A DNA stretch of 52,329 nt, from sequence record NC_048799.1. One strand, 5' to 3'. Within the stretch, counting starts at the first letter, position 1. The number at the start of each line of letters is the position of its first letter. Made by a program: the position numbers and the translations under genes. Of this stretch, positions 9,336 to 51,880 are shown piece by piece. Source of the stretch: Escherichia phage Mangalitsa. The notes below the pieces were generated by a model. The model saw nothing but the letters and a program-made list of their open reading frames with translations, was not told the origin of the DNA and searched no databases.

Positions 9336-9614
9336 ATGAATTACGAAGATATCCCAAGAGAGTTGAATGCACTAGAGTCAAGAGCCATCCGTGCAGAGAA
9401 TATTCTCCACCAGCACCTATCAATTAACGTAGGTGATGAAAAGAAGATGCAGTACACTATGGAACTTGACGATGTAGTCTACACTGTCAGTTACAACGAG
9501 AAGGCTGCTATCCTCAGTGCACTTATCAAAGGTGGAAATGAGCGAATCAATCAACTTAAGATTCTGGACACAGAATTGAGAGGCACTTGGGAGAAACTAA
9601 ATGCAAAACGATAA
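9336..9614 (+). CDS. hypothetical protein
   Basis: ATG 9336 with GGAGC RBS (alternative ATG at 9324). Confidence 0.45.
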   Translation: MNYEDIPRELNALESRAIRAENILHQHLSINVGDEKKMQYTMELDDVVYTVSYNEKAAILSALIKGGNERINQLKILDTELRGTWEKLNAKR

Positions 9615-10149
9615 CATTACTCAAGCAGTAGAACAGCTAAAGTCCTGGCGTAGAGATGAAACCTTATTGGTTCGTTTCTACACAGGCGAAACTAATTCTG
9701 AATTTGTAGATGCGTGGATTGATGGCCTGTCTTGGCGTCACTATGATTTCAACATGCGGGACTATTTGCATGAAGAATATGGCATTGAATATCCAGAAGA
9801 CGGTACATATGACGTAATTGAATCAAACGAAGAAGATGTTACCGAAGTTTGCTTTGCCAATGGGCTATTCAGCATTCGTAAATATGATAAGTTCAATGGG
9901 CTGCTTGTTGACACCGATTTGGATGTAATTCTTGCAGCATTCCGCAGTGGTGAGATTGATATTTTCACTGTGGATGATTTGAACGACATGTTCATCACAC
10001 GTTGCGACTCAATTACAGAATATTTGAAGCAAAGTGAGGCACTGGATATTCCAGACCGCCTTGCACCATATATTGATTGGGATGCAATAACCAGAGATTA
10101 TGGAAGTGACTACATTTTCTCTGAGGGAATATTATTCTTAAATGCGTGA
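9601..10149 (+). CDS. acidic protein, candidate ArdA-like DNA-mimic anti-restriction protein
   Basis: Strongly acidic 182 aa; segments FYTGETNSEFVDAWIDGL and YIDWDAITRDYGSDYIFSEGILF resemble ArdA N- and C-terminal signatures as I recall them; not search-verified. Confidence 0.4.
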   Translation: MQNDNITQAVEQLKSWRRDETLLVRFYTGETNSEFVDAWIDGLSWRHYDFNMRDYLHEEYGIEYPEDGTYDVIESNEEDVTEVCFANGLFSIRKYDKFNGLLVDTDLDVILAAFRSGEIDIFTVDDLNDMFITRCDSITEYLKQSEALDIPDRLAPYIDWDAITRDYGSDYIFSEGILFLNA

Positions 10150-12059: not shown

Positions 12060-12734
12060 ATGTCTTATCATGATGACGACAAAGAAATTGCACTTTCTAC
12101 GTGCAAGCAATGGCTCAATGATAATGATGCCGTCTATCTTGCCAAGGAAGATGTTATCATCATGTGGGTCCATTTTAATCCAGAATCTAAACGCGGTGAG
12201 TGGCAACGCTACAAAATGAAAGAGGCTTGCCGAATCATTAAAGCCACTCGCGCTGGCTTCTCTGCGATGAAGTATATCAAACCAGAGATGCTCATGCTTG
12301 CTGCACAAGAAGAAGAACGTGCTTACAAGCAAGCTGTTAAATCTCGCTCAACTGTTCCTCCAGAGTTCTTTAATCTGGAGCGCGCTGGACACTTCAACAA
12401 TTTAGAAATGTTGACATTGTGCATGTTGCAAGAATTAGTTGGAAGAGGAATGAACATTGAAGCTGTTTGCCTTGGGGAACTCATGAAAGAGTTGTTCTTG
12501 ACAAAGGGCTTTGCTGTGCCTAATCGCACGCTTCGTTGGAAACTGCTTCGTGCTGTTGAAGGTGAAGCTGGTGTGATTATCCGTGACCGAACCAACCGCA
12601 TGACTGTAACAGGTGTGGGACGTTTTGTTGCGATTCAAATCGAGGGCATTGACGACTCGATTACAACTGAACTCACTGTCGCCGAGACAAAGGATTTAGT
12701 GATTAAATCAATCGAACGATTCAATATGTATTGA
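12060..12734 (+). CDS. hypothetical protein (224 aa)
   Basis: Long ORF, no recognisable motif. Confidence 0.55.
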   Translation: MSYHDDDKEIALSTCKQWLNDNDAVYLAKEDVIIMWVHFNPESKRGEWQRYKMKEACRIIKATRAGFSAMKYIKPEMLMLAAQEEERAYKQAVKSRSTVPPEFFNLERAGHFNNLEMLTLCMLQELVGRGMNIEAVCLGELMKELFLTKGFAVPNRTLRWKLLRAVEGEAGVIIRDRTNRMTVTGVGRFVAIQIEGIDDSITTELTVAETKDLVIKSIERFNMY

Positions 12735-13196: not shown

Positions 13197-14041
13197 GTTG
13201 CCAAGGGCAAACTTGAGAAGCTAAGCTAATTCGATCTGGCACGCACTGGAAGATTTCCGGTGCTGCCTTGAACCCATTCCGGCGTGAGTGGGCTTCAATG
13301 AGCATTCTTGTGATTAGAGTTGGGAGGTAGGCCGATGCCCAATCTCGTGGCCCAGACAAGAGTGTTCATTGAAGTTATTTCAATATGGATGTACAGTAGG
13401 ATGAGAAGCTTCTCCGATAAGAGGAGTGAAAGTAGCTGGAAGGACATGCCCACAGAACTGACCGAGACCATTACAGTAGTAGCGATTCACTACCGCGAAA
13501 CAGTATTGAAATTGGCAACGGTTCATGCGGAAGGGCATCAGTGAAATCTACGTTCAGTGCGCGTGGTGAAATGAAGGAGTAGTGTCCTGAGAATTAGCCC
13601 TGTCTGGTTAAATGCCAGAGTCCATATTAAAGTAACTGGAAACTATTCCTGTCAGGTACTCCTATAATGTCTGAAACGGAGTCAGGTCGCACCTGGTAGC
13701 CGAGGCTATTTACCTACAGATGGATACCTGACAGAAGTAGTTTTCTGAGTCTTACGACGGGCCTAAACTGCCTGGAGTTATTGCGACTGTTTTATTCATT
13801 TAAAATAAATGCAAATGATTCTGAAATGCGAGTTGCGGCTTAATTAAATTTGAGTCCTCTCCGTGGTCTTCCAATCCCATGTAACCAAATTTGGCGCATT
13901 GTGGCTTCGAGATGTGATTAATAAATCGGAGCAATAATTAATTTGTATTCTGCGATGCAGGGCAGGCTTAAGTCCCTCAGTGCGCGTAGGGATGTGATAG
14001 AGTACAAACTTAATTATTAACCTAACCTATAGAGAAACATT

Positions 14042-14296
14042 ATGGAAAGCATTGCCGTATTAATTGTTGGTGTTCTGTTGTTTGCTGCATACATGATTCC
14101 AACTCTCATTGCATTTAGTCGTGGTCATGCTTCCAAGTGGGGCATTTTCATTACAAATCTGTTACTAGGTTTAACAGGAATCTTTTGGGTTGCTGCATTA
14201 ATCTGGTCGCTGTCCAATAAAGGTCAGCAACAATCTCTTGTTGTAAATGTTGGCAGTAATAATGTCAGCAATGTATCACAAAAGGATTCGCTTTAA
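14042..14296 (+). CDS. superinfection-immunity-like small membrane protein
   Basis: Two predicted TM helices; MIPTLIAFSRGHASKWGIFITNLLLGLTGIFWVAALIWSL fits the A..R.H....I..N.LLG.T.I.W..A.IW pattern I recall for this family. Confidence 0.5.
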   Translation: MESIAVLIVGVLLFAAYMIPTLIAFSRGHASKWGIFITNLLLGLTGIFWVAALIWSLSNKGQQQSLVVNVGSNNVSNVSQKDSL

Positions 14297-14543
14297 GTGA
14301 ATTGCCCTGAGCATGGAAATAAACTGCTCTAACCGATGGTATCTACAAAGGTAGATTAAATCAGGTTGCCTGTTGGTACTTGGGTTCAACACCTGCTTGC
14401 ACTCGCAAAGTAGTGCCTTGTACCTGAGATGAAGTGAGTCGGGACCATCAATCCCACGTTATGTCAAAACACAGTAGGCGACTCACAGATTCTACAAGCC
14501 TCGCAGTTTGGGAAAACCTGCGTTACCAAAACCCACCTCATTC

Positions 14544-14639
14544 GGACGAGTAGCTCAGAAGGTCTGCTCCAGAGCTTAGTCAGGTAGAGCAATCTGTTCG
14601 ACAGATGTGTCGTTGGTTCGAATCCAACCTTGTCCACCA
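14544..14639 (+). tRNA. tRNA-like gene with an expanded D region; candidate anticodon UCG (Arg) if the anticodon loop is GTTCGAC
   Basis: 7-bp acceptor stem GGACGAG/CTTGTCC, canonical T-arm GTTGG-TTCGAAT-CCAAC, discriminator A and encoded CCA; D-arm-like GCTT-AGTCAGGTA-GAGC preceded by about 20 extra nt; 93 nt before CCA. Confidence 0.4.
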
Positions 14640-14669
14640 GCTTTAATAACCCGCAACACTGGAGTCCTT

Positions 14670-14810
14670 ATGGATTTTGATGCACTTGATAACTTAGACT
14701 TCGGTGCTGCCGAAGAAGCAATTGAAGAACTGAAGAAGAAACAGGACGAAGAAGCAATCGTTCCTGGTGCTGGCGACAACGACTGCTCAAGTGGTGCGTG
14801 CGCCATCTAA
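14670..14810 (+). CDS. hypothetical small acidic peptide (46 aa) with Cys-containing C-terminus
   Basis: GGAG RBS; MDFDALDNLDFGAAEE...GAGDNDCSSGACAI. Confidence 0.35.
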   Translation: MDFDALDNLDFGAAEEAIEELKKKQDEEAIVPGAGDNDCSSGACAI

Positions 14811-14818
14811 GGTGAATC

Positions 14819-15055
14819 ATGCAACAGCTTAAGTCAATCTTTCTTGGCGTCTTGACTGCATTGGGTATTCTCCTTGCAGTGTTCCTCAAAGGCAAAAGCT
14901 CAGGCAAAGCCGAGGAGCGCCAGGAAGCCAAAGAGAAGCAATTCGATTCCATTAAAGAATCTATCGAGATTAAAACGCATGTTCAGAAAGAAGTGTCTAG
15001 CAGTTCTGATAGCAATGTCGATAGTGAGTTGCTCTCAAAGTGGGTTCGTAAGTGA
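14819..15055 (+). CDS. small membrane-anchored protein, possible i-spanin-like
   Basis: N-terminal TM IFLGVLTALGILLAVFL followed by a charged helical region; AAGGTG RBS. Confidence 0.4.
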   Translation: MQQLKSIFLGVLTALGILLAVFLKGKSSGKAEERQEAKEKQFDSIKESIEIKTHVQKEVSSSSDSNVDSELLSKWVRK

Positions 15056-15188
15056 TTACTGCATGATTGCACAACCAATATATTTGGATGTTGCAGAAGT
15101 GAAAGTTTTGTCACGCGAAACCAAAACACAGATTTTAGTCCACAATGAAACGTGGGCACAAAAGTGTTCGAAACTTACCCGACAGTGA
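14979..15188 (+). CDS. possible o-spanin-like lipoprotein overlapping the preceding gene in the +1 frame
   Basis: MFRKKCLAVLIAMSIVSC: positive n-region, hydrophobic core and lipobox-like IVSC; starts inside 14819..15055 and extends past it; rare codons weaken the call. Confidence 0.3.
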   Translation: MFRKKCLAVLIAMSIVSCSQSGFVSDYCMIAQPIYLDVAEVKVLSRETKTQILVHNETWAQKCSKLTRQ

Positions 15189-16085
15189 GTGAACAAGACG
15201 GACGTCTATAACTTCCCACATAAAGTCGAGGGAGTGCGCGACTTTAAATAACGAGACTCTAGCCACTTGTGGTATGGCAGGTGTAATTCCTGCAAGTTGC
15301 TCTGGGCATAACAATTGAAATTGCTGCCTCGCATTGAACGCGAAAAAGTTCAGGTAGTCACTTCCTAGAACAGTGGCCGGGAACAGACCTAGACAAAAGT
15401 GCTTGAGAACGTTAGCTCTGTCTTGCCAGCATTAATGGCACGTTGGCCGCGTAAAGGCCACAGCGTCTGACCAACGTATCGGTCAACCAAATTCAACGGA
15501 TTCGTAGAGTTAATGAAACCTGCACGATGGGATAGGGATGAAGCATCCGAGGCCGACTGTGTAATTGTGAACGCGGAGTTCACCGAATCCACCAAATCAA
15601 TGGGCTAGTGCAAATGTCAGTCACTAGAAGATGTGTTGCAAAACGTCTTCCATGATGTGCAAAGTGTCAGTCACGTGCCCACCACTTTCCTAACAGTTAT
15701 GCCTCTGTTCAAAAGGCTCATGCGAGCGTCTGGCATACCGTAGCGATACGGCTTAGTTGCGCTGATTGTGTTGTGTCGAAAGAAAGTTCAGGCTTTCGTT
15801 TGAGTTCCTCCTCATCTCGAAGTTAGCTGGATTCAAAATCCAGACTATGTTCCTATTCACATGAAATATGCAAGTCGAGGGTTCTTAATATCTGACATAG
15901 GTATTAAGCGGGTTTATACTTTTCCCCGATGGTCCCCATAAACAAGGTTGATTCACTTGGGCGGTTCGAATCAAATTTAATAAGTGTCTTGGCCGCAGTG
16001 GAAACATCATTTAAGCCAATTTATTGTAATGTTCGTAATAGTCCACGTCAGGGCACTTACTTAAATTTTATCTAGAGAGAGAAAC

Positions 16086-16307
16086 ATGAAAACTGCTGAA
16101 ATTGCCGAAGAGATTTATATGGCCTTAATTGCCAACCAAATTACAAGTGAAGTCCTGCACATGGATATTGAAGAAGTTCGCAAGGCCTTTGGTGGTTTTG
16201 CAATCTTGTCAATCGAAGCTGCGGAAGCACTGACAAACACGTACAACCATCGTGAATACGAGAAGCGGTCTGTACTAAATGCGTCGCTTCAAGCGTCATT
16301 AAAATAA
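16086..16307 (+). CDS. hypothetical protein
   Basis: ORF with GAGAGAGA RBS. Confidence 0.45.
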   Translation: MKTAEIAEEIYMALIANQITSEVLHMDIEEVRKAFGGFAILSIEAAEALTNTYNHREYEKRSVLNASLQASLK

Positions 16308-16363
16308 TACCATTATCATGGTGCGGAGCTAATTAATCTCCCACCATATGAACCGGAGAGCAA

Positions 16364-17014
16364 ATGATTACTGCTACACTCGTTGACCACATGGGAAGCG
16401 ACCTCACAACTGTTAACGCTGCACGAGCATCTTATGCAGCAGAATCTTATGTGCTGTCTGAGCGAGACGTTCGTCTGATTCGATTCCTCGCAGAACACAA
16501 GCATATTACGCCGTTTCGTCATGCACAGGTAACTCTTCGTTGCAGTGCTCCAATCTTCATTGCACGTCAACTTGGTAAACACCAGGCTGGCTTTAGTTGG
16601 AACGAAGTTAGCCGTCGCTACAAGGATGGCAAAGATGTTGAAATCAAGTGCTTTGTTCCAGAAACTGTGTTTGGTCGTCCTGAGAAGTTAATGACTCAGG
16701 CTGCACAACCACTGCCAAAAGACTTTGCTGACGATATTCAGTATCGTATGGAAGCGCATAACAAGGCTTGCATTGCAGAGTATGAAACATTACTTGGATT
16801 GGGGATTGCTCCAGAGCAAGCTCGCATGGTACTGCCACAATCCATGATGACCACTTGGATTTGGACTGGCTCACTTTATGGCTGGGCATCCATGTATAAT
16901 CAGCGCTCTTCTGAACATGCACAATACGAATCTCGCTTGTTTGCGGAAGAAGTAAATAAAATTATGTTGGAACTATTCCCAATTTGCTGGAAGGGTCTGA
17001 CCACTCAGGAATAA
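16364..17014 (+). CDS. thyX: flavin-dependent thymidylate synthase (ThyX)-like protein with a non-canonical active-site motif
   Basis: Blocks LVDHMGSDLTTVNAARASY, SAPIFIARQL and FSWNEVSRRY align to ThyX as recalled, but the position of the canonical RHR motif reads KHQ. Confidence 0.65.
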   Translation: MITATLVDHMGSDLTTVNAARASYAAESYVLSERDVRLIRFLAEHKHITPFRHAQVTLRCSAPIFIARQLGKHQAGFSWNEVSRRYKDGKDVEIKCFVPETVFGRPEKLMTQAAQPLPKDFADDIQYRMEAHNKACIAEYETLLGLGIAPEQARMVLPQSMMTTWIWTGSLYGWASMYNQRSSEHAQYESRLFAEEVNKIMLELFPICWKGLTTQE

Positions 17015-17019
17015 AATAA

Positions 17020-18783
17020 ATGAACGTCAAGCAATGTGTTGCCAAGATTAAGCACGATGTACCAGACTGTAAATCCACATCTGGCAAGTCTTTACAGGTT
17101 TGGTTGAATGTCGATGAAGCTGGTAATAAGAACTTCTCTGGTTACTGCTTTGCATGTGGCGTTCTCGTTCCGAATCCGTACGGCAATAATCCGGAGAATA
17201 TTCCGGAAATTAAAGTCAAGACTCCAGAAGAAATTCAGGAAGAAATTGACGAAGTAACCTCGTGCCCTCCGTTTGATTTAGACCATCGCAGCATTGAACC
17301 AGAATTCTGGAAAGCTGCTGGTGTTCGCCTACTCTACTCAGAGTTTGATGGCAAAACTCCAAATGCTTTGGCGCATGGGTATACCAAGAATGGCAAACTT
17401 GTTCGTTGGAAGATTAAACTTCTGAACAAGAAAGTCATGTGGTCTGTTGGCGATACTCAGGGTAATGACCCGTATAACTGGATGGCTGCAAAAGCAATTG
17501 GCGGTAAGACACTGTTCATCACAGAAGGTGAAGAAGATTGTATCGCATTGCGTCAAATCCTCAAGACTATGAACCGTGGTGGTGCATATGAAGATTTGGA
17601 TTTTGCTGTAATTAGTTTGAGTGATGGAAGTGATTCCGTACATAAATGTTTGTCACCAGTTGCAGAAGAAATTAAGCAACGTTGGGAGCAGGTTGTTATC
17701 GTATTTGATGATGATGAACCTGGTCGTAAAGCTGCTAAGGAAGCATGTCGTTTGTTGCCTGGTGCAATGATTGCAACACTTCCAGCTAACGATGCCAACG
17801 ATTGTCTGAAGCGTGGTTTGCTCAAAGCCACTCAGTCTGCTGTTGTATTCCGTGCTGCCCGTCCTCTCCCCACAGCACTCGTCAATAAAGAGCTTCTTAT
17901 GGAAGAGCTTGATGATGAAGTTGAACAGGGTGTGGACTATCCTTGGCCTAAGTTAACCGACTTAATGTTTGGTCAGCGTCGTGCCGAAGTTATCTCAATT
18001 GGTGGTGCAGAAGGTGGTGGTAAAACCACACTGTCACGACAGATTGTGCATCACAACATTGTTCAGCATGATTGGGGAGTGTTTACTGCATACATGGAGG
18101 AAACTCCAGCAGAAACATTACGCCGTATGGCTGGCCTTAATGACAATTTGCCATATTGGGAACCTGCGTTTACACGCGAAGACCCTCGATATGATGAAGC
18201 TAAGTTCCGTCAAACTGCTGCGAAGATGCTTCGTAACATGGAGATTTGGGACCGCAAGCAAGCTGGAGAAGACCCTTATGAAACTTGGGATGGGTTAAAG
18301 ACGATTCTTCGTCAGATTGGTCCAGACATTGATATGTTTGTTCTTGATAACTTAACCTATTTATCGGAAGGGATTTCTGCGTCAGAGAAGAACGACTTTC
18401 TGGGCAAGCTGTATGCAGACATTACAAAGTTAGCAGACCAGTACCAGTTCCACGTTAATATTCTGTCGCACCTTAACCCTGTGGCAAAAGGGCAACGACC
18501 TCATGAAGATGGTGGACGTATCAAGAAGTCAGACTTTACTGGCTCTCGTGCTGCTGCTAAATATTCTCATGGTATGTTTGGTTTTGAGCGTAATAGTCAG
18601 GCAGTAGACCCAAACTGTTCTATTATTCGTTCCATCAAAGCTCGTAAGAGTGGTAAAACAGAAGGCTTCAAGACGTACTATGATACAGACTCAGGTCGAA
18701 TCATTCAACGTTCTTGGGAAGATTCACTGTTTGAAACTAAAGAGATTGTTCAACTTACTAAGAAGAACGGTCCACACCAATAA
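17020..18783 (+). CDS. bifunctional primase-helicase (T7 gp4-like)
   Basis: N-terminal Cys pair, TOPRIM-like ITEGEEDC and VFDDDEPG, helicase Walker A GGAEGGGKTT and Walker B FVLDNL. Confidence 0.8.
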   Translation: MNVKQCVAKIKHDVPDCKSTSGKSLQVWLNVDEAGNKNFSGYCFACGVLVPNPYGNNPENIPEIKVKTPEEIQEEIDEVTSCPPFDLDHRSIEPEFWKAAGVRLLYSEFDGKTPNALAHGYTKNGKLVRWKIKLLNKKVMWSVGDTQGNDPYNWMAAKAIGGKTLFITEGEEDCIALRQILKTMNRGGAYEDLDFAVISLSDGSDSVHKCLSPVAEEIKQRWEQVVIVFDDDEPGRKAAKEACRLLPGAMIATLPANDANDCLKRGLLKATQSAVVFRAARPLPTALVNKELLMEELDDEVEQGVDYPWPKLTDLMFGQRRAEVISIGGAEGGGKTTLSRQIVHHNIVQHDWGVFTAYMEETPAETLRRMAGLNDNLPYWEPAFTREDPRYDEAKFRQTAAKMLRNMEIWDRKQAGEDPYETWDGLKTILRQIGPDIDMFVLDNLTYLSEGISASEKNDFLGKLYADITKLADQYQFHVNILSHLNPVAKGQRPHEDGGRIKKSDFTGSRAAAKYSHGMFGFERNSQAVDPNCSIIRSIKARKSGKTEGFKTYYDTDSGRIIQRSWEDSLFETKEIVQLTKKNGPHQ

Positions 18784-18870
18784 CAGAGCTGCTGCGCTGC
18801 ATGGTTCGCCCACCAGCGCGGCCCTCCCTAAATCCATTGGAGCCATACTGTGTTGTATCCTTGGGAAAAT

Positions 18871-20784
18871 ATGTATGCCAGTGACATTGAAACAACTGGT
18901 TTGTTGGAGCAGATGAAGAAACAGGCTGCACCACGTCTTCACAACATTGGATACATTGATGTTCAAACTCGTGAAGAAACTGTAATTGAGTGGACGCAAC
19001 GAAAATCCATTCAAGACTTTCTGGACACAGGTCCAACACTAATCATGCACAACGGCGCAACCTTTGACTTCGAAGCATTGAAGTTCCTTGGTTATGACGT
19101 TTCAAAATGTACTCTGATTGATACACTATTTATCAGTTGGTATCTCCAACCTCGTCGTGTTAAGCACGGACTTGAAGGTTATGGTGAAGAGTTTGGTGTG
19201 CCTAAACCAATCATTGATGATTGGGAAAACCAAACACAAGAAGAGTACAACCATCGTGTACTGGAAGACTGTAAGATTCAGCACAAGTTGTGGGAACAGC
19301 AGTATATCCAGTTACTCAAGATTTATAAGACTCCATCTGAAGTAAGACGCTTTGTTGAATACTTGATGACCAAAGCTCGCCAACAGGTTATTCAGCAACG
19401 TACTCGTTGGAAGTTGAACATTGAGAAGGCATTGGCATTTAAGGCCAAGCTGGAACCAATGATTAAAGAGAAGACCGACGCATTAGAAGCATCAATGCCG
19501 AGTATTCCAGAATATGCAATCAAAACTCGTCCAGCCAAATGCCACAAGCTAAATGGGCAGTTGTCTGCCACTGGACTTAAGTGGAAAGCTGTTTGTGATG
19601 CAAACGGTTTAGACTGGAAAGACCCAGACTTGGCTATCAAAGTTCTAAAGGGTTATAAAAAGCCAAACGCTGGTTCTCATGTACAAATTAAAGATTGGCT
19701 ATTCAGCTTAGGCTGGGAGCCAGAAACATTTAAGTTTGACCGTAATAAGGAAACAGGCGAGACTCGCCAGATTCCTCAAATTACTGTAAAGGATGAAGAT
19801 GGCAATCCTGAAATCTGTCCGAGCTTGCATAAGCTGGCAGAAAGAAACCCCGACTCCGGTATTCAACACCTTATTGGTATGGGCGTGTATAAACATCGTC
19901 TGTCTGTTGTTAATGGTTTCCTTCGCGACGTCGATGAAGATGGATTCCTTACTGCGCGATGCGGTGGTCTTACCAATACTTTACGTCTTAAACACCGCGA
20001 ACTTGTTAACCTCCCTTCTATTCGCGTATTTGGCGGTGAAGAGCTTCGTTCAATGTTGGAAGCGTGGCGCGAAGACTACGAACAGTTAGGCTCTGACTTG
20101 TGTTCACTGGAAGACCGCTGTAAGCACCACTTCCAATGGATGTATGACCCTGAATATGTTAAGAAGCAGTTGGCACCAGACTATGATGCTCACCTTGCAA
20201 TTGGCGTAATCGGTGGGTTCATCACTGAGAAAGAATCTCAGGACCATAAGGATGGAATACAGAAATGTAAGCAACGTCCAATGTTTAAGACCACTAACTA
20301 TGCTTGTCAATATGGTGCTGGCATTCCAACTGTTGCTCGTTCTGCCGACTGTGACCAAGCAACGGCTGCGCGTCTACATAAAGCATATTGGGACTTGAAC
20401 TGGTCCATCAAAGAGATTGCTGCTAACACTAAAGTAATTACAGTTGATGGTCAGATGTGGCAACAGAATCCAGTAAACAAATTCTGGTATTCGTTGCGTA
20501 CAGAGAAAGACCGATTCTCAACACTGTGTCAGGGCACTGGTGCATATGTGTTTGACATTTGGTGTAACAACATTATTGCAATTTGTAACGAACGTTGGGG
20601 ATGTGACCCGCTTCTGTCTGGACAATTCCATGATGAATTGATTCTCCAGGTTAAGAAAGGCTTCCGCGATTTGTGGACGGACTTGCTTAATGAAGCAATG
20701 GACCGAACCAACAAAGAACTTAAACTTAACCGTGATTGTGCATGTGATGTGCAGTTCGGTGATAACTACGCAGAGATTCACTAA
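18871..20784 (+). CDS. family A DNA polymerase with 3'-5' exonuclease domain
   Basis: Exo I motif ASDIETTGL; Pol A motif B-like KTTNYACQYGAG; C-terminal His. Start uncertain (ATG 18871 or GTG 18850). Confidence 0.8.
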   Translation: MYASDIETTGLLEQMKKQAAPRLHNIGYIDVQTREETVIEWTQRKSIQDFLDTGPTLIMHNGATFDFEALKFLGYDVSKCTLIDTLFISWYLQPRRVKHGLEGYGEEFGVPKPIIDDWENQTQEEYNHRVLEDCKIQHKLWEQQYIQLLKIYKTPSEVRRFVEYLMTKARQQVIQQRTRWKLNIEKALAFKAKLEPMIKEKTDALEASMPSIPEYAIKTRPAKCHKLNGQLSATGLKWKAVCDANGLDWKDPDLAIKVLKGYKKPNAGSHVQIKDWLFSLGWEPETFKFDRNKETGETRQIPQITVKDEDGNPEICPSLHKLAERNPDSGIQHLIGMGVYKHRLSVVNGFLRDVDEDGFLTARCGGLTNTLRLKHRELVNLPSIRVFGGEELRSMLEAWREDYEQLGSDLCSLEDRCKHHFQWMYDPEYVKKQLAPDYDAHLAIGVIGGFITEKESQDHKDGIQKCKQRPMFKTTNYACQYGAGIPTVARSADCDQATAARLHKAYWDLNWSIKEIAANTKVITVDGQMWQQNPVNKFWYSLRTEKDRFSTLCQGTGAYVFDIWCNNIIAICNERWGCDPLLSGQFHDELILQVKKGFRDLWTDLLNEAMDRTNKELKLNRDCACDVQFGDNYAEIH

Positions 20785-21056
20785 TGAAAACTGTATACTC
20801 TATTTTCGATATGCAGGAGTTAGAGCATCATATGTTTGCTACTGATTCCGAAGTTCTCGCAAAAGACGCCGTAATGGCGTTTCTTGAAAAGATTAAGGGC
20901 AACGTATTCGCTTCGTCCGACCCACAGTCTCAAGCACTTAACGATGAGACATTTAAAAGCCTCCAATCTTTAATCTCGGCAACGACTTCAATTGAAGAGC
21001 TGTCCGAAGCATTAGTTGGATACGACTTCCGTCTTGCAACATTGCAAGTCGATTAA
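20784..21056 (+). CDS. hypothetical protein
   Basis: ATG overlaps DNAP stop. Confidence 0.5.
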   Translation: MKTVYSIFDMQELEHHMFATDSEVLAKDAVMAFLEKIKGNVFASSDPQSQALNDETFKSLQSLISATTSIEELSEALVGYDFRLATLQVD

Positions 21057-21084
21057 CCTAAACTGAAACTTAAAGGTACTCAAA

Positions 21085-21951
21085 ATGGCATTTGCTGCTC
21101 CTACCCTGGCCTCGAACAAGACTCCTTCTGCTGCACCATTACTGGAAGCGGGTGGTTATCCTGCTCGTGTTTGCCGTATTATCGACCTGGGCCTACAGCC
21201 TGGTTCTGCTAAATATCCTACCCCGTCTCTGAAACTTCTGGTTTCTTTCGAACTTCTCGACGAGTACATGAAAGAAGTTGATGGCGAAGGTAAAATGGTC
21301 ATGGTCCAAGACCCGGACGAAGATGACGGCGTAATGATGGCGAAGAATCTTGAAGACAAGCCGCGTTGGTTTGACTTTGAGTTTACCTACAACGCTGACG
21401 GCTTCATGGGTGACAACTCCCACATCTACAAATTCGCTAAAGCGATTGATGCTCTGGAAGTTAAACAGAATCTGGAACAAGGCATTCAGGGCCATCCTGC
21501 CAAGAACCTGCCAGATTGGTTGGGCGAACCTCTGATTGTTGGCATTGTTCAGTATACCAAGCAGTCCGGTAAGAATGCTGGCCAGGTTGCAAACAAAGTT
21601 GCTACCTTCTCTCCGATGAAATCTAAGGAGAAGAAAGAAGCTAAAGCTCTGGTTAACCCGACTGTCTTCTTTGACATGTCTGAGCCGGACCTGGAAGTAT
21701 TCAACAAACTGCCAGGTGGCGAATCTCCGTATGCAATCAAGAACCGTATTACTTCCGGTGTTGATTTCTACAAGACTAAGCTGTCTGCACTATTAGGCGG
21801 TAAGCCTGCCGATGAAGGCGCTGTACCGAATCAGGCTTCTGATGAAGAAGTTGATGCAGCTATGAAAGCTGAACTGGAAGCACAGGCTGCTGCAAAAGCA
21901 CAGCGTGAAGCGGAAGGTGGTGCTGCTGGCGGTACTGGAATGCCCTTTTAA
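21085..21951 (+). CDS. candidate ssDNA-binding or annealing protein with flexible tail ending in GMPF
   Basis: Sits immediately after DNAP; high-expression codon usage; Ala/Gly/Glu-rich C-terminal region ending ...GGTGMPF, reminiscent of gp2.5 or SSB tails. Confidence 0.35.
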   Translation: MAFAAPTLASNKTPSAAPLLEAGGYPARVCRIIDLGLQPGSAKYPTPSLKLLVSFELLDEYMKEVDGEGKMVMVQDPDEDDGVMMAKNLEDKPRWFDFEFTYNADGFMGDNSHIYKFAKAIDALEVKQNLEQGIQGHPAKNLPDWLGEPLIVGIVQYTKQSGKNAGQVANKVATFSPMKSKEKKEAKALVNPTVFFDMSEPDLEVFNKLPGGESPYAIKNRITSGVDFYKTKLSALLGGKPADEGAVPNQASDEEVDAAMKAELEAQAAAKAQREAEGGAAGGTGMPF

Positions 21952-21959
21952 TCATAATT

Positions 21960-21982
21960 GGCTCCTTCGGGAGCCTTTAATT
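21960..21982 (+). terminator. intrinsic terminator, GGCUCC-UUCG-GGAGCC hairpin plus U-rich tract
   Basis: Perfect 6-bp stem with UUCG tetraloop then TTTAATTT. Confidence 0.6.
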
Positions 21983-21992
21983 TGGAATTCAA

Positions 21993-22421
21993 ATGAAAGT
22001 TTGTAGTTCATGTAAAACACCAAAGCCTTTATCTGAATTCTATAAATGGAAGTTGGGTAAAGATGGGCATCGAGCAAGCTGCAAGTTTTGTGTAAACAAA
22101 CAAAACAACAGCAGCATAAGCAAGAACCCAGAGGCCAAACTTCGAGCAAACCGTAAGTATAAGAAAGTTAATATCGACAAAGTTCGAGAGCAAACTTCTT
22201 TGTACAGAAACTCAAACCCAATAAAACGTGCAGCACATGTTGCAGTCCAAATAGCTCTTAGAGAGCACAGACTTGTAAAAGGTGCTTGCGAATGTTGTGG
22301 AGATACTAATTCAGTAGCTCACCACGACGACTATTCCAAGCCTCTGGATGTGAGGTGGTTGTGCAACTTCCACCACAAACAGTGGCACACCAAGAACGGA
22401 GAAGGACTTAATGGTAAGTAA
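21993..22421 (+). CDS. HNH endonuclease
   Basis: N-terminal CxxC pairs; C-terminal AHHDDY...WLCNFHH HNH-like motif. Confidence 0.5.
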   Translation: MKVCSSCKTPKPLSEFYKWKLGKDGHRASCKFCVNKQNNSSISKNPEAKLRANRKYKKVNIDKVREQTSLYRNSNPIKRAAHVAVQIALREHRLVKGACECCGDTNSVAHHDDYSKPLDVRWLCNFHHKQWHTKNGEGLNGK

Positions 22422-23436
22422 GAAGCGCGTCCTGCTTCTCGTTGATGCAGATATGGTTGCATTTTCCCACTGCGCGGCAGAAGAATATGGGAAAGAGCCA
22501 GGAGATATAAACTTCGCCAAGATTCAAATGTCCATAGACTCCAAGATGGAGTTCCTTGCCAAGCGTTCTGGAGCCACGGAGATTATGAGTTTTGTATCCC
22601 CGTCTGAAACTATGAGACATGTCTTTGCTCCTGACTACAAGGGCAACCGTGATAACGTATGGCGTCCAGAAAACCTTAAGAATGCGAAAGCACATCTCAT
22701 GGTTGCATGGAATGGAATGTGGATGAAGGGTCTGGAAGCAGATGACCTTCTGGCTGTATTCGCTCGACATGAATACGAAGCAACAATGGGTAAACGTAAT
22801 GAGATTAAGAGCCTCAAGCGCATTGGTCCGTGCACATATGATGAAGTCTGGATTGCATCGTTGGACAAAGACTTGCGTCAAATCGGGCAGAACGGTGGTG
22901 TTGGTCCAGTAATCAAGCACTACCAGTGGGAACGCGAAACCCAGGGCATTGGTGAGAAAATCGTAATCCCGAAAGATTATGGTGAACTCAAACTAATCAT
23001 CAAGGACAATGGTAAAACGAAGAAGAAAGAAGTTAAAGGCAATGGTCCCAAATTCTTCTTGCATCAATTGCTTATTGGCGACTCAACGGATAACGTTATG
23101 GGTTGCGGAGTTCTTGAAGAAAGAATCTACAAAACTGGTGCCAAAGCCGGAGAAACTTATTTCCGTCGTGATGGCATTGGTGCAGTTGCTTCATTCGAAA
23201 TGCTGGATGGTACAACCTCCTATGCAGAAGGTTTGAAGAAAGTTATTGGTGCATATATTGTGCGCTTCGGAGATGGTTGGGAACAAGAGCTGCTCAAAGT
23301 GGGCCGTCTTGTTTACATGCACCATCAAATTGAAAAGGGTAATTGTGTTCGCTTGTGGCATTACAAGAACATTAACGAATACTTTGACCTTAAAGAGAAT
23401 CGTATCCTCACTCAAGAAGAGTACCTCCAGAAATAA
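22411..23436 (+). CDS. 5'-3' exonuclease / flap endonuclease (T7 gp6-like)
   Basis: LLVDADMVAF, PDYKGNR, EADDLLAV and SLDKDL match the T7 gene 6 pattern as recalled. Confidence 0.75.
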   Translation: MVSKKRVLLLVDADMVAFSHCAAEEYGKEPGDINFAKIQMSIDSKMEFLAKRSGATEIMSFVSPSETMRHVFAPDYKGNRDNVWRPENLKNAKAHLMVAWNGMWMKGLEADDLLAVFARHEYEATMGKRNEIKSLKRIGPCTYDEVWIASLDKDLRQIGQNGGVGPVIKHYQWERETQGIGEKIVIPKDYGELKLIIKDNGKTKKKEVKGNGPKFFLHQLLIGDSTDNVMGCGVLEERIYKTGAKAGETYFRRDGIGAVASFEMLDGTTSYAEGLKKVIGAYIVRFGDGWEQELLKVGRLVYMHHQIEKGNCVRLWHYKNINEYFDLKENRILTQEEYLQK

Positions 23437-23447
23437 TTGGAGTTGGA

Positions 23448-23972
23448 ATGGCTTACGGTTATTGTGGAACGGAAGCCAAGTTTGTATCTTGGCTCCAATC
23501 TGCTATTCGAAGTGTTTGGTCTAAACACCCAAGCAAACTTGCGCTGATACAATCTCGACGCATTGCATTGAGGGTCGGTGACTCAAAGAAACCAATCTTC
23601 CACATTCAATGCTACCATTGCAAGAAGTTGTATAAGCTCAAAGAGATTGAAGTAAACCACAAAGTTCAGGTTGGTGGCCTCCTTAAATTGGAAGACCTGC
23701 ACCGCTTTGTGGACAACCTTCTACTGGTTCAGCCAGAAGATTTGGAATTGCTGTGTAAAGATTGTCACGGCATTATTACATACATGGAACGATATGGTGT
23801 ATCACGACGTGATGCAGTCATTGAGAAGAAGTGTATCGCATTTGCCAAATTATCTGACGAAGAGCAAATTGCCAAGTGCAATCTTGCTAAAATAGAGCCA
23901 GTTCCTAAAACCAAAATCGGACGCAAGAATGCTGTCCGAGAATACCTGAGAAAGAATCTTAATGTCTATTAA
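23448..23972 (+). CDS. HNH endonuclease
   Basis: CYHCKK...EVNHK...CKDCH arrangement (Cys pair, His, Asn, Cys-x2-Cys-His). Confidence 0.5.
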   Translation: MAYGYCGTEAKFVSWLQSAIRSVWSKHPSKLALIQSRRIALRVGDSKKPIFHIQCYHCKKLYKLKEIEVNHKVQVGGLLKLEDLHRFVDNLLLVQPEDLELLCKDCHGIITYMERYGVSRRDAVIEKKCIAFAKLSDEEQIAKCNLAKIEPVPKTKIGRKNAVREYLRKNLNVY

Positions 23973-24717
23973 GCTCCTCGATGATGGTACAAAATACACA
24001 AAGGCTCACGCACATGATTGGGAAGACCCAGACTGCCGTATCAAAGGGCGCTGTGAACTCTTCATCAAGATTGACGGAATTCGAGCTATCCGTAATAAAT
24101 CAGGTAGTGTCTGGAGTCGTAATTCCAAACCCCTACCTCATTTGGACCACTTACAGTTCAGAGATGCTGAGATATTCCGTAATAGTTGGAATGAGACTTC
24201 TAGCATCCTCGGACGTATTGACCCGCCAAGCATTCCACTAACCCAAGACAATGTGTATGAGTTGAGCGATGGTGCTGTTGACCCACGCCTGTACATCGGC
24301 TGGTGCAAGGACCCAAGCAATGAGAACCTTAAGGCATTGATGGATAAATACTTGGCGCTTGGTCATGAAGGTATTATTGTCCGTGATGCAAAAGGTAAAT
24401 GGTGGAAAATTGTACCATACAAATACGCCGATGTAAAAATTACTGGTATGAAAGAGGGTACTGGTGCTCTTAAAGGTATGTGTGGTTCTATTTCCTCGAA
24501 CTACGGCAGTGCTGGCTCAATGGTGAAAGATTGTCTGGCAGACCACGGTATTCCTGAATCTAACACATTGATTCGTAAGTGGTTGTGGGAACACCGTCAC
24601 GAGCTAATTGGTTCGATTATGCAAGTTCGGTATCGTGAGAAAACAGAAGCTGGTAAGTTCCGGTTCCCGTCACTCGTTCGTTTACGTGCAGACAAGAGTG
24701 AGGAAAGTTTTGATTAA
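23962..24717 (+). CDS. ATP-dependent DNA ligase
   Basis: Adenylation motif I KIDGIR in FIKIDGIRAI. Confidence 0.7.
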   Translation: MSIKLLDDGTKYTKAHAHDWEDPDCRIKGRCELFIKIDGIRAIRNKSGSVWSRNSKPLPHLDHLQFRDAEIFRNSWNETSSILGRIDPPSIPLTQDNVYELSDGAVDPRLYIGWCKDPSNENLKALMDKYLALGHEGIIVRDAKGKWWKIVPYKYADVKITGMKEGTGALKGMCGSISSNYGSAGSMVKDCLADHGIPESNTLIRKWLWEHRHELIGSIMQVRYREKTEAGKFRFPSLVRLRADKSEESFD

Positions 24718-25336
24718 GCGACTAGCTGTTATTCTTAATGGACCTCCTGGCTGCGGTAAAGACACTATTGCCAATAAGATTATTGCTGCTGAGGAATCCT
24801 ACTTCCTCGGTAGGCGCAAATTCATTAAACATCAGTTTAAGGATGCACTGTATGAGCATACTGCCAAACACTTTCAAGTTGATGTGGACAAGTTTATTCA
24901 CTATGCTTCGGACCGTGACCTCAAAGACTCTATCTCCCTTGCAGGTCTTGGTGGCAGAACACCTCGTCAAGCTCTTATTCATGTTAGTGAAGACATATAT
25001 AAGCCTCGCCACGGACAAGACTATTTTGGTCAAGTTGAAGCGGCTCGTGTTAAAGAACTCACGGGGCGTATGGGTGGCGTTGTTAATGTCATTTATCCCG
25101 ATGGCGGTTTTGGCGATGAAGTCGTTGCCATTGAGTCTGCTTATGATTTTGTCATCATTGTGCGTTTGCATCGTGGTGGTTATGATTTCAAAGGCGATTC
25201 TCGCAGATACATCGAACTCCCAAACACACCTACCCGCGTAACAGTGGATGAACATCTAATTGATGGTAAAGTGGGTGATGCTGTATTCAAAGTGTTCAAC
25301 TGGATTGAGCGCGTAACTCATCAAGTAGAGAAATAA
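24710..25336 (+). CDS. P-loop kinase, candidate deoxynucleoside monophosphate kinase (T4 gp1-like)
   Basis: Walker A LNGPPGCGKDT; start uncertain (TTG 24710 or GTG 24698); the ORF-track frame overlaps the ligase. Confidence 0.5.
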   Translation: MIKRLAVILNGPPGCGKDTIANKIIAAEESYFLGRRKFIKHQFKDALYEHTAKHFQVDVDKFIHYASDRDLKDSISLAGLGGRTPRQALIHVSEDIYKPRHGQDYFGQVEAARVKELTGRMGGVVNVIYPDGGFGDEVVAIESAYDFVIIVRLHRGGYDFKGDSRRYIELPNTPTRVTVDEHLIDGKVGDAVFKVFNWIERVTHQVEK

Positions 25337-25338
25337 TC

Positions 25339-25791
25339 ATGTCTTGTATGACTCAAGTTGTTGCTGTAAAGCGAGTGCATCCTAATGCGAAATTACCTGT
25401 GTACGCTACTGCTGGCGCTGCTGCTGCTGACGTTTGCACTATCTCCGATAGCACTGTTGTTATCAATCCCGGCTGCTCTGCTGTTTTCGATACTGGCCTC
25501 CAGTTCGAGATTCCAATTGGATACGAACTCAAAGTGCATAGCCGTTCTGGTCACGGCTTTAAGTCTGGCATTCGCCTGGCAAACTGCACAGGAATTCTGG
25601 ACTCCGATTATCGTGGCAATCTTATGGTTAAGTTGCACAACGATTCGGACACAGCCTTTGTGGTTCAGCCAGGTGAACGTATTTGTCAGGTGCAAGTTAG
25701 TAAAGCTACTCAACACCATTTCGTTGAAGTTGACCTCTTAAATTCCACTGTTCGTGGTGAAGGTGGGTTTGGTTCAACTGGACGAGTTTAG
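25339..25791 (+). CDS. dut: dUTP pyrophosphatase (dUTPase)
   Basis: All five dUTPase motifs: AGAAAADV, HSRSGHG, GILDSDYRGNL, RICQVQV, RGEGGFGSTGR. Confidence 0.85.
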   Translation: MSCMTQVVAVKRVHPNAKLPVYATAGAAAADVCTISDSTVVINPGCSAVFDTGLQFEIPIGYELKVHSRSGHGFKSGIRLANCTGILDSDYRGNLMVKLHNDSDTAFVVQPGERICQVQVSKATQHHFVEVDLLNSTVRGEGGFGSTGRV

Positions 25792-50225: not shown

Positions 50226-50780
50226 ATGCTATCATTCAAAGTTCTTGCACTTCTGACAGCTTTAGTTCACATCAACGCCCCAGCTTCGGTTGGGGCAGTG
50301 AATTCTGCTATTACAGATTTTGCAAGTCATTCCTATTTAAATGGAAGTCTGAAACTATCTTCTTCACAACGCAAAGAGCTAGAATGCTATACTAAAGTAA
50401 TCTGGTACGAAGCTCGTGGTGAAGATAAACATGGAAAGATTCTGGTAGCTAATGTCGTCCGTAATAGAACAGAGTTCGGGAAGCCATTCGCTAACACCGT
50501 TTGTAATGTTGTCTACCAACGCAATCAATTTGCATGGACACGAGAAGCAAAGAAGAAGAATGCTCAATGGAAGCATGTAGCAAAGATTAATTATGCCACA
50601 GAACAACAACAAGTTCTGGACACCATTAATGTTGCAATCTCTTTTGTACTATTTAATCAACCCTCTATCACCAAAGCAACTCACTTTTGTACAGCATCGG
50701 AGAAGTGCAACTTCAAGAATGTCAAAGGTCTGGGCCGCTATGGTGGACATAAATTCTATGAGTATCTAGGAAATCTGTAA
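50226..50780 (+). CDS. SleB-type cell wall hydrolase with N-terminal signal or signal-anchor sequence
   Basis: [29 protein letters not shown]...[17 protein letters not shown] matches the SleB/CwlJ catalytic-domain pattern; hydrophobic N-terminus [24 protein letters not shown]. Confidence 0.65.
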
Positions 50781-51880
50781 TGGCTTACACTACCTTTTCA
50801 CAAACCAAGAATAACCAACTACTAGAGCCAATGTTCTTTGGTCAGAACGTTAACGTTGCTCGATATGACCAACAGAAGTACAGCATCTTCGAGAAGTTAA
50901 TCGAGAAGCAGTTATCATTCTTTTGGCGACCTGAAGAGGTTGATGTTAGCCAGGACCGAATTGACTATGCCAGTCTGCCTGAATGCGAGAAGCACATCTT
51001 CACAAGCAACTTGCGTTACCAAATCCTGCTTGATTCCATTCAGGGACGTGGGCCAACCACAGTTCTGCTACCAATTGTGAGCATTCCTGAACTGGAAACT
51101 TGGATTGAAACTTGGTCTTTCTCTGAGACAATTCATTCCCGTTCTTACACTCATATTATTCGTAATATTGTCACCGACCCAAGTGTAATCTTTGATGAAA
51201 TTGTGGAGAATGAGCATATTAAAATGCGTGCAATTGGCATCTCTCAATATTATGATGAGCTTCAGCATCTCACTTCCATGTGGCATCTGCATGAAGATGA
51301 AGTAGACCTCCGTGAACTTAAGAAGAAGCTGTATTTATGCCTCATGTCCATCAATGCACTGGAAGCAATTCGCTTCTATGTTAGCTTTGCTTGCTCATTT
51401 GCCTTCGCTGAACGTAAGTTAATGGAAGGAAATGCCAAGATTATTCGCTTAATTGCTCGTGATGAAGCACTCCATTTGACCGGAACTCAACACATGTTGA
51501 ACCTACTTGCAAGTGGTGTTGATGACCCAGAAATGGCCGAAATTGCCAAAGAATGCCGTCAAGAATGCCAAGAAATGTTCGAAAATGTGGCCCAACAAGA
51601 GAAAGATTGGGCTGATTATTTGTTCAAAGATGGCTCAATGATTGGCTTAAATAAGCAAATTCTGTGCGGATATGTGGAATATATCACGAATATTCGTATG
51701 CAAGCAGTTGGATTGGATGCTCCATTCAAAGGTGCAACTAACCCGATTCCATGGATTAATGCATGGTTGAATTCGGATGCTGTACAAGTTGCTCCACAGG
51801 AAACGGAGATTAGTTCGTACCTTGTCGGGCAGATTGACTCCGAAGTTGACACCAATGCTCTGGGCGGATTTGAATTATGA
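50780..51880 (+). CDS. nrdB: ribonucleotide reductase class Ia small subunit (NrdB)
   Basis: Near-identical over long stretches to E. coli NrdB as recalled ([11 protein letters not shown]..., [16 protein letters not shown]..., C-terminal [13 protein letters not shown]). Confidence 0.9.

Follow-up and report, generated by a model that had tools for sequence, protein, structure and literature searches.

Known ThyX enzymes and related phage systems

The gene considered here is of an already annotated kind, having carried the label of thymidylate synthase in phiEcoM-GJ1-like genomes since 2008. The published signature of the ThyX family is RHRX7S (Myllykallio, 2002, as cited in PMC2826268). According to a review of the family, the residues of the RHR triplet hydrogen-bond FAD at its AMP phosphate and, in the FMN half, at both the phosphate and the ribityl; the first Arg additionally bonds with the isoalloxazine, and the phosphate clamp is completed by a Ser and an Arg of a second subunit (S71 and R190 in M. 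tuberculosis; PMC6514825). A relative of ThyX from polyoxin biosynthesis, PolB (4P5A), is a flavin-dependent C5-methylase of UMP and dUMP with the ThyX fold, and the paper on its structure lists the contacts made with the nucleotide, including a hydrogen bond between Arg86 and the ribose O3′ (PMC5003785). Transfer of a one-carbon unit to a pyrimidine deoxynucleoside monophosphate, the type of reaction also expected of the protein described here, is carried out in phages by the dCMP hydroxymethylase gp42 of T4 and by the dUMP 5-hydroxymethyltransferases of SPO1, M6 and the ViI-type phages. To our knowledge, PolB is the sole ThyX homologue with a changed (broadened) substrate range, and we know of no natural hydroxymethylase of the ThyX type.

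Genome setting

The window, that is the whole stretch of DNA analyzed (52,329 bp; Escherichia phage Mangalitsa), was compared with the public databases by a megablast search of positions 14,000–24,000, which returned 73 phage records. The best matches were the Carltongylesvirus (Chaseviridae) phages vB_EcoP_Bp7, SA91KD, ST32, phiEcoM-GJ1 and flopper, which are collinear with the window and show approximately 90–92% identity. The annotation of phiEcoM-GJ1 fits the layout of the ORFs, with a T7-like RNA polymerase, small early genes and an ArdA-like anti-restriction gene, then thymidylate synthase, primase/helicase, DNA polymerase, exonuclease, ligase, a “phage protein,” dUTPase and structural genes. 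The 52.3-kb window is essentially one whole phiEcoM-GJ1-like Chaseviridae genome, in which the genes that immediately follow thyX are those for primase/helicase and DNA polymerase. No tRNA genes were predicted in the window by ARAGORN. The features referred to in the text are listed in Table 1.

Table 1. Positions of thyX, its variant signature and the other genes discussed, as numbered within the window
Feature	Position	Strand	Description and evidence
ArdA-like anti-restriction gene	9601–10149		Pfam and PHROG scans
thyX	16364–17014	+	216 aa, ATG start; Pfam, TIGR02170, PDB, AF2, Foldseek, dN/dS
Variant ThyX signature	16577–16621	+	K72-H73-Q74-AGFSWNEV-S83-R84-R85-Y86; alignments to T. maritima and Thermus ThyX
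dNMP kinase candidate	24710–25336	+	208 aa; P-loop GPPGCGKD; phrog_139 (E = 1.4e-38)
dUTPase	25339–25791	+	150 aa; PF00692 (E = 1.3e-22); phrog_135 (E = 3.5e-60)
NrdB, class Ia ribonucleotide reductase beta subunit	50780–51880	+	PF00268 (E = 2.3e-49)

Family and fold of the thyX product

The Pfam model PF02511 (Thy1) was matched by residues 5–206 of the protein with 141.3 bits (E = 4e-41) over model positions 1–190 of 191, the cutoff of this model being 24.8 bits. The ORF also scored 127.6 bits against the NCBIfam “equivalog” model for thyX, TIGR02170, for which the curated cutoff is 87.9, and it was matched by phrog_85 (E = 1e-69). A phmmer comparison with solved ThyX structures gave E-values of 9e-25 for the Thermus and 1e-23 for the Thermotoga enzyme. 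The AF2 model of the protein, with an alignment of 68 sequences as input, reached a pLDDT of 95.1 and a pTM of 0.89, and a Foldseek search of the PDB with it returned T. maritima ThyX for all of the top 50 matches (ThyX–dUMP complexes), the best being 8reo_A (E = 4.9e-17, TM 0.84). No match to the ThyA family was found for the protein in either the Pfam or the fold searches. By both family and fold, the ORF is a full-length ThyX. The statement of the initial annotation that the protein aligns to ThyX is therefore borne out by an end-to-end match to Thy1, a TIGR02170 score above the cutoff and the agreement in fold.

The KHQ motif and the binding residues

Residues 71–86 of the protein, encoded at positions 16574–16621, read GKHQAGFSWNEVSRRY, giving a signature of KHQX8SRRY where canonical ThyX has RHRX7SGRY. 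The triplet K72-H73-Q74 lies opposite R78-H79-R80 of T. maritima ThyX in the phmmer pairwise and MAFFT alignments alike, and the segment KHQAGFSWNEVS has one residue more ahead of the invariant Ser than its counterpart RHRIASYNELS in T. maritima. The T. maritima numbering used here was rebuilt from the pairwise alignment, with a 12-residue tag offset that reproduces the positions given in the literature. The literal RHRX7S signature is absent from the protein (K72-H73-Q74-X8-S83), no intact RHR occurs anywhere else in its 216 residues, and the alignment is unambiguous. The initial annotation had given RHR as the family motif, and had reported KHQ at its place; the former agrees with the published signature (PMC2826268), and the placement of KHQ stands after the alignment to ThyX with active-site mapping that it had proposed as a check. 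Its description of RHR as substrate binding holds for the first Arg, which is conservatively replaced by Lys in this protein, but not for the second and third residues, which are ligands of the cofactor.

The roles of these residues were compared across structures by constant offsets. In the mapping of this analysis, R97 and R190 of M. tuberculosis correspond to R80 and R165 of T. maritima, and an offset of 8 places the nucleotide contacts of PolB on T. maritima F71, R74 and Q75 (phosphate), R78 (ribose O3′), E86, S88, G89 and R90 (phosphate, O3′, O4), R147 and R174. Arg82-His83 of PolB was also considered as the counterpart of RHR and was rejected, as the offset converts this pair to R74-Q75 and Arg86 of PolB to the first Arg of the triplet. 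RHR is chiefly a clamp for the phosphate and ribityl of FAD (PMC6514825) and no determinant of base or product specificity.

The T. maritima residues involved in dUMP binding and catalysis, namely H53, R74, Q75, E86, S88, R90, Y91, R147 and R174, are all kept in the phage protein, in the same order as H47, R68, Q69, E81, S83, R85, Y86, R154 and R181. The arginines R80 and R165, which hold the FAD pyrophosphate in T. maritima, are replaced with Q74 and Y172, respectively; Thermus ThyX is also without R165, having a His there. Furthermore, an Arg has been gained at position 89 (T. maritima numbering), beside the dUMP phosphate, in this protein and in the subfamily to which it belongs. As R80 and R165 are both missing, the handling of the cofactor may differ from that of the characterized ThyX enzymes. 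It is put forward as a hypothesis only that this redistribution of arginines predicts looser binding of FAD and tighter binding of dUMP than in T. maritima ThyX.

It could be suspected from these changes that the protein is a genuine uracil-C5 methylase with an altered preference for its cofactor or nucleotide, one in which flavin is bound more loosely or exchangeably, with FMN or free reduced flavin taking the place of tightly bound FAD, or which accepts UMP or dCMP in the manner of PolB-like enzymes. The loss of R80 (to Gln) and R165 (to Tyr), the change of E58 and the Arg gained at position 89 would be in line with such a shift (PMC6514825; PMC5003785), and PolB shows that ThyX homologues can widen their nucleotide specificity (PMC5003785). 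However, the specificity of PolB lies in Loop 1, Loop 2, Tyr99 and Tyr126, outside of the RHR triplet (PMC5003785), and the ThyX enzymes of T. maritima and Thermus match the phage protein better (E = 1e-23 to 9e-25) than does PolB (1e-16). The residues that recognize uracil (R174 and R90) and those that contact the deoxyribose (E86 and K78) are also kept, as are the ligands of the adenine pocket and ribityl (S30, H79, N85 and E86), which speaks for continued binding of FAD. A changed preference is thus considered unlikely.

Extent and distribution of the variant subfamily

The 120 best homologues in a collection of 5.8 billion proteins were 61–98% identical to the phage protein and mostly encoded on contigs of approximately 52 kb. 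The KHQ triplet was present in 118 of them, with KHS and KHA in the other two, and twelve positions (S30, H53, R74, Q75, H79, N85, E86, S88, R90, Y91, R147 and R174) were invariant in all 120. When 1.84 billion cluster representatives were searched exhaustively with HMMER, 7014 relatives were obtained, and most of the nearest 150 clusters (50% identity) showed the KHx pattern. Residues were tallied for the 130 alignable sequences among the best 150 of these 7014 relatives (50%-identity clusters). Position 78 was Lys in 113 of the 130 representatives and position 89 Arg (“SRRY”) in 122, with position 80 being Gln in 70, Lys in 20, Thr in 16 and Arg in just four, other residues making up the rest. 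The same twelve positions were kept in at least 93% of these diverse representatives, with the exception of N85 (95 Asn, 34 Ser).

When the gene itself was read from named phages, two coherent types of ThyX emerged. The canonical type has R78-H79-R80, E58, Gly, Ala or Gln at position 89, Asn or Asp at 163 and Arg or His at 165, and is carried by T. maritima, Thermus, Thermus phage P23-45, a mycobacteriophage, the T4-like cyanomyovirus S-PM2 and Pseudomonas phage JG054. The variant type has K78, His or Tyr at 79, Gln, Val, Lys or Thr at 80, a non-acidic residue at 58 (a position that varies within the type between Ala, Arg, Gly, Ser and Phe), S163, Tyr, Ala or Gln at 165 and usually R89, together with an insertion of 1–8 residues ahead of W-N-E. 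Its carriers include the phage described here, phiEco32, a Grimontviridae Salmonella phage, Bacillus phage Blastoid, Streptomyces phage EGole, the cyanosiphovirus S-CBS4 and Rheinheimera phage Barba5A.

As KHQ is fixed in 118 of the 120 best homologues and the pattern is prevalent in the 150 nearest clusters, it is no private change to one active site. It is a lineage trait, the fixed signature of a large and mostly phage-borne subfamily of ThyX, and no lesion. KHQ marks a distinct subfamily with K78-H79-Q/K/T80, R89, S163, no Arg at 165 and an insertion of 1–8 residues, which has lost two arginines at the FAD pyrophosphate and gained one by the dUMP phosphate, with the pocket and catalytic residues unchanged. 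Since the departure from RHRX7S is common to the whole subfamily, the literal pattern under-describes the ThyX family; it fails for the large and coherent KHQ/K/T…SRRY group, and motif filters such as that of PMC2826268 would wrongly drop its members.

These data also bear on the possibility that the ORF is a decayed or non-catalytic relic of ThyX, kept for some other purpose, for instance in regulation or the binding of nucleotides, for which the absence of the literal signature speaks. Such a relic is extremely unlikely. The gene is under purifying selection, with a dN/dS of 0.12 against gp33 of phiEcoM-GJ1 (dS 0.89), and the catalytic and substrate residues do not vary across the 120 homologues, down to 61% identity. 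In addition, the protein scores above the curated equivalog cutoff, its AF2 model is complete and confident, and the subfamily is very large and conserved.

Bacterial chromosomal contexts

A purely phage-borne subfamily, as suggested by matches that were all on contigs of no more than 80 kb, was considered and rejected when a genome scan gave chromosomal and syntenic contexts. KHQ/SRRY peptide patterns built from an 18-sequence alignment were scanned against 100,044 species-representative genomes, giving 38 loci; for the subfamily at large this number is a minimum, as the patterns catch KHQ-type relatives only. The motif KHQ…SRRY was present in all 38 loci except for one (L048), a partial match to residues 1–78 of the phage protein in which it was not found. 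Phage-like contexts were seen at L017, with genes for DNA pol A and RNR, and at L027, with genes for a primase and a DnaB-like helicase.

Housekeeping neighborhoods were found in four bacterial lineages. On a Spirochaetaceae contig of 186 kb, thyX adjoins a pyrF-pyrE (UMP synthase) gene and is preceded by genes for citrate synthase, an aldo-keto reductase and a short-chain dehydrogenase. A Nitrospinaceae contig has thyX flanked by an HlyD-family gene and ispH/lytB, and a Dehalococcoidia contig of 132 kb has an MFS transporter gene beside it. In two Poribacteria species-level MAGs the whole 6.6-kb locus is syntenic, with flanking proteins 89–97% identical and the ThyX proteins 94.5% identical. 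A hydroxymethylase for DNA hypermodification would be odd in such neighborhoods, where a thymidylate synthase is to be expected.

Partner genes

The start of the dNMP kinase candidate was placed by inference from the length of its homologue in phiEcoM-GJ1, gp43. Sequence and profile searches of Pfam and the PDB with this protein gave nothing beyond P-loop similarity; its AF2 model (pLDDT 94.3) had as top Foldseek match in the PDB the dNMP kinase gp1 of T4 (1DEK; E = 5.8e-6, TM 0.60, 14% identity). The protein has the P-loop NMP-kinase fold and the GxxxxGKD P-loop of T4 gp1-like kinases, and with the fold search leading to T4 gp1, “T4 gp1-like candidate” is a fair label. The phage NrdB is a close copy of that of the host, matching E. 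coli NrdB (PDB 7ai8/1jpr) over its full length with E = 8e-200; it has the ferritin-like R2 domain and the radical-Tyr context of a class Ia beta subunit, and keeps SRSYTHII and the C-terminal alpha-binding tail. No ORF of NrdA size or of the NrdA family was found in the window.

The dNMP kinase, canonical dUTPase and orphan NrdB proposed in the initial annotation were accordingly all recovered, the kinase through phrog_139 and its best structural match to 1DEK, the dUTPase through PF00692, and NrdB through PF00268 together with the lack of a NrdA ORF. Their description as a single module does not hold, as the genes are scattered over 34 kb and are non-contiguous: the kinase and dUTPase genes lie 8 kb downstream of thyX, and nrdB lies 34 kb off at the right end of the genome. 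The dNMP kinase had also been regarded as a hallmark of hypermodification. It is not diagnostic in this respect, because T5 and T7 have canonical DNA and yet encode one.

State of the phage DNA

Two readings of the locus had been offered, ordinary dTMP synthesis and a hydroxymethylase that feeds DNA hypermodification. By the second, ThyX would hydrate the exocyclic methylene instead of reducing it, and the resulting 5-hydroxymethyl-dUMP would be passed into the virion DNA by the dNMP kinase. The chemistry of ThyX does run via an exocyclic methylene (PMC8989533), RHR is changed at two of three positions as well as in spacing, dUTPase and a gp1-like dNMP kinase are both encoded, and a literature search found no assay for any member of the KHQ/SRRY subfamily. 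However, the known natural phage hydroxymethylases belong to the ThyA family (PMC8989533), to which this protein with its ThyX fold does not. The changed residues bind the cofactor phosphate, away from C5 and the flavin N5, with H53, S88, Y91, R90 and R174 intact, and the same type of motif occurs in the bacterial housekeeping contexts described above. An altered signature motif is by itself no evidence of DNA hypermodification.

Pfam and PHROG searches of 20 ORFs (those of the replication module and the NrdB-sized ORFs) for a ThyA-type hydroxymethylase, a 5-hmdU DNA kinase, a transferase, a PLP or radical-SAM enzyme or a glycosyltransferase found none, nor were any genes for the exclusion of dTTP or for downstream modification found among the ORFs scanned. 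The annotation of phiEcoM-GJ1 likewise lists no modification genes. With a fold other than that of ThyA, a KHQ motif that is subfamily-wide, intact active residues and no modification genes in the scanned ORFs, the hydroxymethylase reading is unsupported.

The sequence of the genome itself was also informative. GATC occurs once in the 52,329 bp, where approximately 198 occurrences were expected from composition and 163 from a Markov model, and there are no sites in the window for PstI, ScaI, ClaI, KpnI, SacI, BamHI or BglII. Palindromes of 6 bp have a median observed/expected ratio of 0.66, compared to 1.00 for other 6-mers (p = 4e-15). In phiEcoM-GJ1, GATC occurs twice, and the four 6-bp sites that were spot-checked gave counts of 0 (PstI), 0 (ScaI), 2 (ClaI) and 1 (KpnI). 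Such extreme avoidance of restriction sites, together with an ArdA-like gene, is how a phage with chemically unprotected DNA copes with restriction. Selection against these sites would be relaxed by a bulky modification of thymidine, so their avoidance is unexpected in chemically shielded DNA.

A literature search on ThyX-based hypermodification, variants of RHR and DNA modification in the Chaseviridae gave nothing relevant beyond the digests of PYps23T, whose ThyX motif is identical to the one described here. The MbiI and NdeI (CATATG) patterns of PYps23T equal the in silico digests with the 2.3-kb terminal repeats included (PMC8762354), NdeI cutting this DNA as predicted, and the library used to sequence SKA49 had been made by Nextera tagmentation (PMC10282059). 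It should be noted that NdeI and MbiI digests and short-read sequencing would be blind to a small substitution such as 5-hydroxymethyl-dU. As the site avoidance and the digests are both compatible with so small a change, a residual probability is kept for hypermodification, and the production of 5-hydroxymethyl-dUMP for the virion DNA is judged highly unlikely. There is likewise very little probability that a phage ThyX of the KHQ/SRRY type releases 5-hydroxymethyl-dUMP or otherwise diverts the flavin-methylene chemistry. If this were true, the Chaseviridae, kuraviruses and other carriers would hold a small and unnoticed substitution of thymidine, missed by short reads and a few digests.

Proposed role of ThyX

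The evidence favors ordinary dTMP synthesis. What was obtained directly is the family and fold of the protein, the conservation of its residues, the distribution of the subfamily, the purifying selection and the genomic contexts, and from there we infer that thyX very probably encodes a working flavin-dependent thymidylate synthase producing dTMP for a genome of canonical bases. The activity, its product and the effects of the changed phosphate clamps are spoken of here in this sense.

ThyX would be expected to form the usual homotetramer, in which reduced flavin would take up the methylene group of CH2H4folate and pass it to C5 of dUMP. Reduction of the exocyclic methylene by NADPH would then give dTMP. 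As the folate would be released in the form of H4folate, a phage DHFR would be unnecessary. The dUTPase would convert dUTP to dUMP, both supplying dUMP and clearing dUTP, and the gp1-like kinase would convert dTMP to dTDP and probably act on other dNMPs too. The host-like NrdB would presumably pair with the NrdA of the host and boost ribonucleotide reduction, the combined outcome being more dTTP for the replication of a canonical-base genome. With thyX lying just ahead of the primase/helicase and polymerase genes, its position is in keeping with expression alongside replication. Read in this way, the locus would be a routine case of a phage that supplies a DHFR-independent thymidylate synthase, a dUTPase, a dNMP kinase and a host-like NrdB to lift dTTP. 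With their phosphate-binding arginines redistributed and no characterization of them found in the literature, the members of the subfamily are a reasonable target for enzymology on flavin binding by ThyX.

Comparison with known systems

The thyX product is orthologous to gp33 of phiEcoM-GJ1, with 82.9% amino acid identity, and identities of up to 86.6% were found with its counterparts in ST32, flopper and Bp7. In phiEcoM-GJ1 and the other Carltongylesvirus phages thyX likewise precedes the genes for primase/helicase and DNA polymerase and encodes the same KHQ…SRRY motif; phiEcoM-GJ1 differs in having a HNH endonuclease gene between thyX and primase/helicase, which is absent here. The T. maritima enzyme TM0449 (1O26/8REO) shares fold, length, dUMP-binding residues and catalytic residues with the phage protein at approximately 30% identity. 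Relative to it, the phage protein carries the changes R78K, R80Q, E58R, G89R, N163S, R165Y and L173Q and one extra residue before Ser88. PolB is also matched (E = 1.1e-16). The phages with pyrimidine hydroxymethylases resemble this phage in having a dNMP kinase and a dUTPase alongside, but their enzymes are of the classical ThyA family (PMC8989533), whereas the protein described here has the unrelated fold of ThyX.

Distribution and structure of KHQ-type ThyX proteins

ThyX proteins of the KHQ type, which carry KHQ...SRRY at the place of the canonical RHR signature, are also encoded by chromosomal genes in bacteria (L024:2974–3627 with its neighbouring genes, and the whole of loci L033 and L039, from a scan of 100,044 species-representative genomes). 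In a Spirochaetaceae metagenome-assembled genome (MAG) the gene adjoins a pyrF–pyrE fusion, and the loci of two Poribacteria species MAGs are syntenic. Further carriers were found in Nitrospinaceae, with ispH adjoining the gene, and in Dehalococcoidia. Many members of the subfamily reach two to three times the usual protein length, among them P0126 (480 aa), P0167 (530 aa), P0172 (526 aa) and P0239 (601 aa), all recovered in a HMMER search with the Mangalitsa ThyX. As the query aligns to these over-long members in two or three separate stretches, their sequences suggest that inteins or other inserted elements interrupt the thyX genes. The ThyX match in Vibrio phage pVa5 is likewise discontinuous, and coincides in part with an annotated HNH endonuclease.

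Ribonucleotide reductase

The nrdB gene occupies the extreme right of the genome, and its partner NrdA is absent. Compared with E. coli NrdB, the phage protein retains the sequence context of Tyr122 as well as the C-terminal tail that binds NrdA, with one loop shorter by approximately 10 residues. From its sequence, it appears to be a beta subunit of host origin which would pair with the NrdA of the host.

Features of the Mangalitsa genome
Feature	Position	Strand	Remarks
224-aa conserved protein	12060–12734	+	phrog_13087 ("unknown function")
tRNA-like partial match	14573–14628	+	Rfam RF00005, model positions 9–63; weak
288-aa conserved protein	21085–21951	+	phrog_862 ("unknown function")
Putative HNH endonuclease ORF	21993–22421		Translation resembles HNH endonuclease
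174-aa ORF	23448–23972		Place corresponds to HNH gene gp41 of phiEcoM-GJ1
NrdB	50780–51880	+	Near-copy of E. coli NrdB over its full length, E=8e-200

Restriction-site avoidance

Avoidance of restriction sites in the Mangalitsa genome is extreme. GATC occurs once in 52,329 bp (position 13233) against an expected number of approximately 160–200, and sites for PstI, ScaI, ClaI, KpnI, SacI, BamHI, BglII, SnaBI and ApaI are missing from the whole genome. Across its full length, the median observed/expected ratio was 0.66 for 6-bp palindromes versus 1.00 for other 6-mers (p=4e-15). Sites for EcoRI, SspI, DraI and HpaI showed no depletion. In phiEcoM-GJ1 there are only two GATC sites, and four spot-checked sites were few or absent, as in Mangalitsa.

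The replication module and its upstream region

The RF00005 match scored 27.9 bits, slightly below the gathering score of 29, and ARAGORN predicted no tRNAs in the whole genome; at the equivalent place, phiEcoM-GJ1 has an annotated 95-nt tRNA-Arg "that may contain an intron". It should also be noted that approximately 1 kb 5' of thyX (~15060–16086) is devoid of convincing ORFs, gave no Rfam hits at E≤0.1 and contained promoter-like sites at a frequency not above that of shuffled sequence. Its counterpart in phiEcoM-GJ1 (14961–16028) also carries no annotation.

The 288-aa and 224-aa conserved proteins, encoded within or close to the replication module, had no match in a Pfam scan. Two HNH endonuclease genes of phiEcoM-GJ1 (L001), one inserted between thyX and primase/helicase (16986–17429) and a second between primase/helicase and DNA polymerase (19254–19739), are absent from the corresponding Mangalitsa positions (17014–17020 and 18783–18850, respectively). 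Taken with the putative HNH endonuclease ORF (21993–22421) and the 174-aa ORF at the place of gp41, these differences indicate that the replication module is variable in its complement of homing endonucleases.
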